A stretch of 50,067 nucleotides of DNA, counting the filler, from Obrimoposthia wandeli (lineage: Eukaryota): NCBI GenBank assembly GCA_977020255.1. It is 4 parts of 4 records of this genome, joined end to end, with 100 filler letters (N's around TTAATTAATTAA, not from the genome) between each part and the next. Parts side by side here need not be neighbours in the genome. Positions count along the whole stretch, not along the records: positions 1 to 27,342 come from CDROCS010002597.1; 3 more parts are not named here. One strand, given 5' to 3'. The notes under the pieces were generated by a model that was not told the DNA's origin, ran no database searches, and was given only the letters and a program-made list of their open reading frames with translations. Below, piece by piece: positions 24,867 to 25,700 of this stretch (position 1 is the first letter of the stretch; every line of letters starts with the position of its first letter). The translations under genes were made by a program, and so were the position numbers.

Positions 24867-25700
24867 AGTAGGTAGAAGGATGGAGTCTAAGCCACTTGAC
24901 CCCCCCTAAAGAGTGTCACACCATAAGGATGTCTTGCCACACCATACGGGTATATGTTGCCTCACCTCTGGTGAGGCAACATATACCCGTATGGTGTGGC
25001 AAGACATCCTTATGGTGTGACACCCTTTAGGGAGGAGAGGGAGGGGGAGGGGTAGGGGGAGGGGTAGGGGGAGGGGTAGGGGGAGGGGTAGGGGGTCAAG
25101 TGGCTTAGACTCCATCCTTCTTTGATATATCACTATGGTCGTCCATAGGTTAAAGGGTCAAGTGGCTTAGTCTCCACCCATCTTTTTGGCTAATCCTTAG
25201 GTCATCCATAGGTTAAAGGGTCAAGTGGCTTAGTCTCCACCCTTCTTTTTGGCTAACCACTATGATCATTCATAGGTTAAAGGGTCAAGTGGCTTAGTCT
25301 CCACCCTTCTTTTTGTGATCTAGTCTCCACCCTTATTTTTGTGGTGTAGTCTCCACCCTTCTTTTTGGCTAACCACTATGATCGTCCATAATTCAAAGGG
25401 TCAAGTGGCTTAGTCTCCACCCTTCTTTGGTATACCACTATGATCGTCCATAATGAAAATTTAGGCTAAAGTTCACTCTTATCAGTTAAGGAATGTGGTT
25501 TTTAACACATATACATTATTTTATGTGAAATTTAAACTAAAGTTCACTCTTATCAGTTAAGGAATGTATTACGTAATCACACACATACTATTCTATGTGA
25601 AAATTTAGACTAAAGTTTTTCCTAGGCTTACACATTTATAGAATTATGATAAAATTTCTTTAAATAACTTCAATTATATATTAAAATAAAAAAAAATAAA
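24867..25700. mobile_element. Polinton left terminal inverted repeat (5'-AGTAGGTAGAAGG..), body extends right
   Basis: AGTAG start; homologous, in inverted orientation, to 580-2102; contains a fold-back hairpin, a G-run and ~64-bp repeats at 25130-25450. Confidence 0.8.

Follow-up and report, generated by a model that had tools for sequence, protein, structure and literature searches.

Polinton/Maverick elements are recognized by TIRs at both ends, by a target-site duplication of 5–8 bp (usually 6 bp) and by PolB and integrase genes, and the model of their replication has been taken over from adenovirus. TIR lengths have been described for vertebrate (PMC8097293) and nematode (10.1101/2023.08.22.554363) elements, and end motifs in the former survey, where their role was inferred by analogy; the words "hairpin" and "palindrom" occur in the main text of neither. 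The accessible parts of PMC12220804, 10.1101/2022.05.25.493380, PMC11296320 and PMC6431247 hold nothing on DNA hairpins inside Polinton TIRs, and no account of animal Polinton ends with subterminal hairpins or G4 tracts was found in the open-access literature, a scope outside which Kapitonov and Jurka 2006, Pritham 2007, Repbase and supplements may describe such repeats. Terminal palindromes are already known in protist virophages and PLVs. In the endogenous virophages and PLVs of Halocafeteria seosinensis they occur in some subtypes only, and the available text leaves open whether they serve in priming or arose by accident (bioRxiv 10.64898/2026.07.28.741278).

The window analysed here is a 50,067-nt stretch of DNA from Obrimoposthia wandeli. 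At 24867..24895 (plus strand) it contains an element terminus with the signature AGTAGGT-N11-GTCTA-N2-CCAC (16 bases), which is matched exactly and with identical spacing at 2102 (minus strand), 24867 (plus), 27740 (minus) and 30702 (plus), where 0 matches are expected (100 shuffles). The 24867 end starts with AGTAG, five of the six letters of (AGT)2, at a sharp boundary. Contigs from two sequencing runs (X1 and X2, from one sample and one study, and possibly the source of the assembly itself) leave this boundary into unlike flanks in 101 (X1) and 67 (X2) cases, and one 1177-nt contig matches flank and terminus exactly over 24600–24889; the boundary is therefore real and the family large. The terminal block is present in about 3,200–3,500 copies (the ratio of summed to single-copy depth, divided by 31), an order of magnitude only, because internal array copies are included and depth is no copy number.

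Broken Polinton genes occur throughout the window, where integrase, ATPase, capsid-type and polymerase remnants were mapped with 139 proteins from 15 of 58 related metagenome loci. Intact relatives match rve+chromo, Pox_A32 and Peptidase_C5, and one of the three large relative ORFs tested matches a DNA polymerase family; all three contain what we take to be the PolB motif, KxxxNxxYG. The protein that we call capsid-type, from its size, its position and the presumed Polinton gene order, has no significant Pfam, PHROG or PDB match. At 30702 the 3′ end of a capsid-type gene remnant lies within about 160 nt of the signature, and the capsid-type, minor-capsid-type and integrase remnants of that element match intact elements with rve integrase, A32 ATPase, C5 protease and family B polymerase, which ties the signature to Polintons. 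The Polinton-type context proposed in the first-pass annotation is thus supported by the signature at four ends, the adjoining gene remnants and the contig boundary, and the 24867 end probably represents the terminal repeat region of a Polinton/Maverick-type element present in high copy number.

The interior of this element (25453..27342, plus strand, up to the gap at 27343) is AT-rich and contains a 175-nt array (26057–26634) and 91 nt that match interior sequence behind the 2102 end. No ORF of at least 90 aa and no coding match (0 tblastn hits with the 139 proteins) was found in 24867–27342. The element is probably a gene-less or deleted derivative; alternatively, this could be a long non-coding end whose far end lies beyond the gap. 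The flanks of the four signature ends do not pair up as a target-site duplication, and their partner ends are outside the view of the window. A pairing of 24867 with 27740 as two ends of one element was rejected, the two belonging to different subfamilies and having no common flank. Like described Polinton TIRs, the 24867 end combines a start close to the (AGT)2 end motif (PMC8097293) with a long non-coding terminal region in a family whose copies are mostly degraded (PMC8097293, 10.1101/2023.08.22.554363, as far as the available text goes), and rve integrase, A32 ATPase, capsid-type and PolB remnants lie nearby. It differs in reading AGTAGG rather than AGTAGT, and in three features further in: a subterminal palindrome, a G-tract and an array whose units contain inverted terminal blocks. 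Overall it resembles a Polinton end and is probably one, with the second end and the target-site duplication out of view.

Among the 58 related metagenome loci no recognisable terminus was found, and the hairpins of loci L024 (809–957, intergenic), L025 (35–100) and L057 do not adjoin a signature. Five mid-contig matches to the signature in viral contigs all have neither C-run nor hairpin and were taken as chance, a stricter pattern had 0 matches in metagenome contigs, and capsid-type, ATPase and integrase queries recovered 0 relatives from viral contigs. The L024 hairpins are two adjacent AT-rich structures between genes (809–957), and the same locus has two tandem minor-capsid-type genes (5616–7684), as does the 30702 element of the window. 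The L023 contig ends (7482) in a G-run just past its polymerase side, which fits assembly breaks at the C/G run.

Several other features of the window were recorded. Two related insertions in opposite orientation (13947–16025 and 34517–37348) each interrupt Polinton genes and differ in their internal tandem arrays (46-nt ×17 and 37-nt ×6 in the first, 66-nt ×25 in the second). Remnants of BIR and RING domains of the inhibitor-of-apoptosis type lie among Polinton genes at 4690–5648 and probably represent an accessory gene. A Gag-like ORF with a zinc knuckle (43121–45445) is likely an LTR retrotransposon remnant. The last coding exon of a stomatin/MEC-2-like host gene, with about 80% identity to proteins of several invertebrate phyla, which marks the host as an invertebrate animal, lies on the minus strand at about 21955–22233; no upstream exon of it was found in the window, and an intronic, transcribed hairpin is thus unsupported.

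The hairpin at the 24867 end consists of two stems, all arms being given on the plus strand. The left arm of the inner stem (24904..24966) is made of three related ~21-nt modules and pairs with the right arm (24970..25032) over 63 bp, 62 of them complementary, around an inversion centre at 24967..24969 that forms a TCT loop (contigs of other copies have C at 24969). The single mismatch is 24912 A opposite 25024 C. The outer stem pairs nt 8–38 of the terminal block (24874..24904, ending in the C7 run 24900–24906) with 25091..25121 in 31 of 31 positions, and leaves the 7 terminal nucleotides unpaired in the fold on either strand. Between the two right arms lies a G-rich insert of 58 nt (25033–25090), part of a tract with a 12-nt period (TRF) whose predicted G4 motif (25030..25095) has the top G4Hunter score in the window, 3.12, on sequence grounds. 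The energy of the fold is −108.8 kcal/mol, compared with a shuffle mean of −34.2 (z −21.5), and 0 of 200 shuffles were equally stable. Rfam returned 24 matches, all to generic long-hairpin miRNA models and none reaching the gathering score. Alignment confirmed the coordinates that the first-pass annotation gave for the 63-bp stem, as well as its perfect 31-bp pairing with a looped-out G-rich tract. The pairing of both stems holds, but they are not separate structures: in global alignment they form one inverted duplication of 24874–24966 (93 nt), with the G-tract placed opposite the C7 run of the terminal copy.

The outer right arm doubles as the first unit of a ~64-nt tandem array (25093..25452, plus strand, 5.9 copies by TRF), five units of which contain an inverted terminal block. 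The first inverted copy of the terminal 30-mer, starting at 25093, has 0 of 30 differences from the terminus and is the sole identical unit. The variants noted in the first-pass annotation at 25150–25440 start at 25155, 25218, 25282 and 25398, with 4, 3, 3 and 3 mismatches of 30, respectively; these four units do not contain the conserved GTCTA, which is kept only in the pairing unit.

The three sister ends place this structure in a wider setting. The 2102 end (2017..2102, minus strand) belongs to the same subfamily and has a weak stem at nt 42–86 built from the same modules (z −2.5, 2 of 100 shuffles), beyond which the modules run in tandem and are followed by a 99-nt array (1474–1925). The 27740 end (27593..27740, minus strand) belongs to another subfamily; inside its signature and C-rich tract it has a 46-bp perfect hairpin from nt 40 (z −16.4), absent from the first-pass annotation, whose arm sequence is unrelated to that of the 24867 end and is bordered by a C-run and a G-run, and which is followed by a 46-nt tandem array (27443–27589). 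Its loop contains a 25-nt tandem duplication of the centre, without which the palindrome would be loopless. The 30702 end (30702..30783, plus strand), of the same subfamily as 27740, has the signature and part of one arm only, with no stem; the stretch 30702–34529 is a deletion derivative, with a 232-nt tandem duplication at the junction between terminus and capsid-type gene, and with two minor-capsid-type remnants and an integrase remnant beyond that gene. Stems thus start at nt 38–42 in three of the four signature ends (in one of them weakly). A scan of the 50-kb window for strong hairpins returned three, two of which start at nt 38 and nt 40 of signature ends, an arrangement with a chance of about 4e-6 by a post hoc estimate. 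In repeat scans, the 100-nt gaps (27343–27442, 39734–39833 and 46296–46395) gave false inverted repeats from a central 12-nt all-frame stop linker. The third strong hairpin is a perfect, loopless 49-bp palindrome (13850–13947) in a polymerase remnant; it duplicates coding sequence, lies beside a (TA)n run and directly precedes an inserted element, and looks like an accidental fold-back.

The outer stem, in contrast, was found at none of the three sister ends. At 2102 and 27740, the terminus matches its own array no better than shuffles do (a score reached in 112 of 300 and in 300 of 300), and the inverted terminal block that appears in both arrays by eye was rejected on this comparison. The tandem arrays of the 24867 and 2102 ends are alike (0 of 300 shuffles reach their similarity), the similarity between the 2102 and 27740 arrays is marginal (6 of 300), and that between the 24867 and 27740 arrays is not significant (175 of 300). 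The first-pass description of the 2102 terminus as one-armed is too simple, since this end has a weak stem of its own. Read inward on the opposite strand, the unit of the G-tract is similar to the C4-T-C5-like tract that lies immediately internal to the 27740 and 30702 termini, and this likeness argues against sequencing noise as the source of the tract.

Run contigs provide evidence on other copies of the family. They were aligned to 24600–25045 at 85% likeness, a span that takes in only the first part of the G-tract and stops short of the outer right arm, and the share of 149 sampled words (23600–25130) present was 0.95 and 0.77 in the two runs. Contigs that cross the centre have about one to four times single-copy depth: in X1, one covers 24933–25006 with 11 differences at depth 23 and another 24920–24993 with 6 differences at depth 69 (single copy, 38), while three in X2 cover 24930–24993/5 with 4–6 differences. 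The change T>C at 24969 is found in 68 (X1) and 66 (X2) contigs, up to 37 and 29 letters from the contig end. Loop variants are present among the contigs, whose shortness leaves orientation to the terminus unfixed. Among the best 16 of 14,367 pieces, one has at least 31 letters on both sides of the centre and none has the exact TCT centre of the 24867 copy. Joints such as 24966 to 25014 place other modules beyond the centre, a joint from 25025–25027 back to 24969 places modules in tandem, and others show modules in other orders, directly behind the terminal block, and across a centre; loose contig ends at 24904–24907 indicate that many copies diverge immediately past the C-run. Since the inversion centre is seen in other, diverged copies, it is neither private to the 24867 copy nor likely a chimera. 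Because about a third of the contigs fit two places (2238 of 6692 and 2365 of 7435), per-base shares are indicative only and not clean allele counts: at 24947, A makes up 91% (X1) and 95% (X2) of summed contig depth whereas the 24867 copy carries a C/G pair (24947 C, 24989 G), and at 24912 the majority state (97% and 93%) matches the right arm. No variant at 24989 matching 24947 is among those listed.

We favor the reading, at a probability of about 0.55, that a family-wide subterminal quasi-palindrome of ~21-nt modules was perfected in the 24867 lineage by fold-back template switching. Ends of the family would share a plan in which a 38-nt terminal block and a C-run are followed by ~21-nt modules set head-to-head about a 3-nt centre, and these by a G-rich tract and a tandem array. 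The modules would form an imperfect palindrome that varies in length and in module order. A new strand, copied from the terminus inward, could have folded at the centre, copied itself back to nt 8 and rejoined the template at the homologous first array unit, possibly during strand-displacement copying of the element. We infer the switch itself. The minority C–G pair in both arms (24947/24989), together with the majority state of the right arm at 24912, suggests that one arm was templated by the other, with a single divergence afterwards, and the first array unit, with 0 of 30 differences against 3–4 of 30 in its neighbours, is counted for a template switch that ended in register with the array. 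Because plain copy-back would leave G7 where the tract of 58 nt stands, slippage is required as a further step, which may have enlarged the G-tract or shortened the terminal C-run. Template switching is a documented route to the perfecting of imperfect inverted repeats, and in quasi-palindrome correction, too, the growing strand folds and is extended on itself before it returns to the original template, so that the arms end up identical (PMC5941160, in the part available); in copy-back or snap-back defective viral genomes, copy-back of a terminal segment yields a short panhandle (PMC13506859, likewise). These processes are described there for chromosomal inverted repeats and mainly for RNA viruses, and for Polinton ends they are a proposal. 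Against the template-switch reading stand the weak stem at 2102, the stemless 30702 end and the missing exact match to the TCT centre among the best 16 of 14,367 pieces. The snap-back history raised in the first-pass annotation is, through the shared minority pair and the perfect first unit, better supported than an origin, but as a one-off fossil it is at odds with the centres found elsewhere and the unrelated hairpin at 27740. The hairpin is real and more than a one-off, but ends of the family need not carry it in this elaborate form. That the palindrome keeps a fixed position hints at a structural role near the origin, but its length looks incidental.

Other explanations assign the fold a different history or none. 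It could be a selected one-ended origin, in which each end of a displaced single strand folds on itself into a 31-bp duplex containing the GTCTA/CCAC block, with a 7-nt single-stranded tip for priming by terminal protein and polymerase, no need of the other end, and arms kept identical by concerted copying. The conserved 7-nt tip is left free exactly, on both strands, the pairing unit is the sole array unit with the conserved GTCTA, and palindromes begin at nt 38–42 in three of four ends. The protein-primed telomeres of Streptomyces (PMC5449611, in its accessible part) lend a parallel as ends of a linear replicon with a terminal protein and several palindromes packed into the first ~180 nt, the terminal one able to pair internally; those palindromes are short, have GNA loops, include the very end and are served by Tap/Tpg proteins, so that this is analogy and no homology. 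We nevertheless consider a selected one-ended origin unlikely, given that the outer stem is absent from the 2102 and 27740 ends and the 30702 end has no second arm, that the same 255 nt are more stable as a two-ended duplex (−358 kcal/mol) than as both local folds taken together (−109 and −110), and that bidnaviruses, thought to be protein-primed, have ends without terminal palindromes (PMC4938981, as far as available). The parvovirus-like rolling-hairpin or resolution end that the first-pass annotation invoked is barely plausible. A long hairpin does lie near the terminus, and hairpin priming has been proposed for the terminal palindromes of protist virophages and PLVs (bioRxiv 10.64898/2026.07.28.741278, available text), which likewise lie within TIRs of polinton-like elements. 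Those of Halocafeteria, however, sit at the very end, directly flanking the target-site duplication, and mainly accompany non-pPolB replication genes. Here, the outer stem begins at nt 8, 7 nt inside the end, and the inner one at nt 38, 38 nt inside, and the element belongs to an animal Polinton clade whose relatives have a family B polymerase. The parvoviral analogy fails on this geometry, because an end with 7 unpaired terminal bases, 3′ end included, and a long stem that begins 38 nt inside is not a self-priming one; it also fails on the three sister ends without an outer stem, and on genes, no HUH/Rep family having been matched among the 24 of 46 window ORFs scanned.

The duplication might instead be private to this copy, a fold-back made by host replication after insertion and unrelated to the spread of the element. 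The 49-bp palindrome at 13850–13947, which duplicates part of a polymerase remnant beside a (TA)n run, shows that accidental fold-backs occur in the window, and the exact 63-bp stem is found elsewhere in none of the contigs listed. Yet other copies, too, have such centres, at depths of one to a few copies, a long hairpin of a second subfamily sits at the same offset, and the duplication terminates in register with the array; we regard such an accident as distinctly unlikely. Still more doubtful is an artefact of assembly or library preparation, in part or whole, most plausibly affecting the G-tract together with the outer arm; it could be a mosaic of repeat copies, for instance, or G-rich sequencing noise after the hairpin. 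The assembly has 4 N-gaps, and similar ends of the family number in the hundreds to thousands; summed depth at 25035–25045 is down to 7% (X1) and 2% (X2), although this is also the edge bin, the last before the contig alignment stops short of 25046–25121; and 5% and 23% of the sampled words of 23600–25130 are missing from the two runs. An in vitro snap-back, on the other hand, would copy the left arm exactly, whereas the arms differ at 24912 with the right arm in the majority state, the tract is periodic with a unit like the C-rich tract of the 27740 and 30702 ends, and contigs spanning the centre are at genomic depth.

A broader and rather unlikely extension is that an animal Polinton clade and its gene-less satellites use a structured, self-folding end, with a palindrome kept at nt ~40 whatever its sequence and growing in successful sublineages until the end forms a one-ended panhandle, its 7-nt priming tip free and its bulge G4-prone; trimming of the tip would then allow self-priming, a possible route to giant snap-back Polinton palindromes. 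Short of such a scheme, a structure that recurs in two subfamilies equally far from the end, although its arm sequences are unrelated between them, is a candidate cis-element. If the hairpin is a by-product only, it would still record single-stranded, fold-back-prone intermediates at Polinton-type ends, and would explain the loss of such ends from short-read assemblies.
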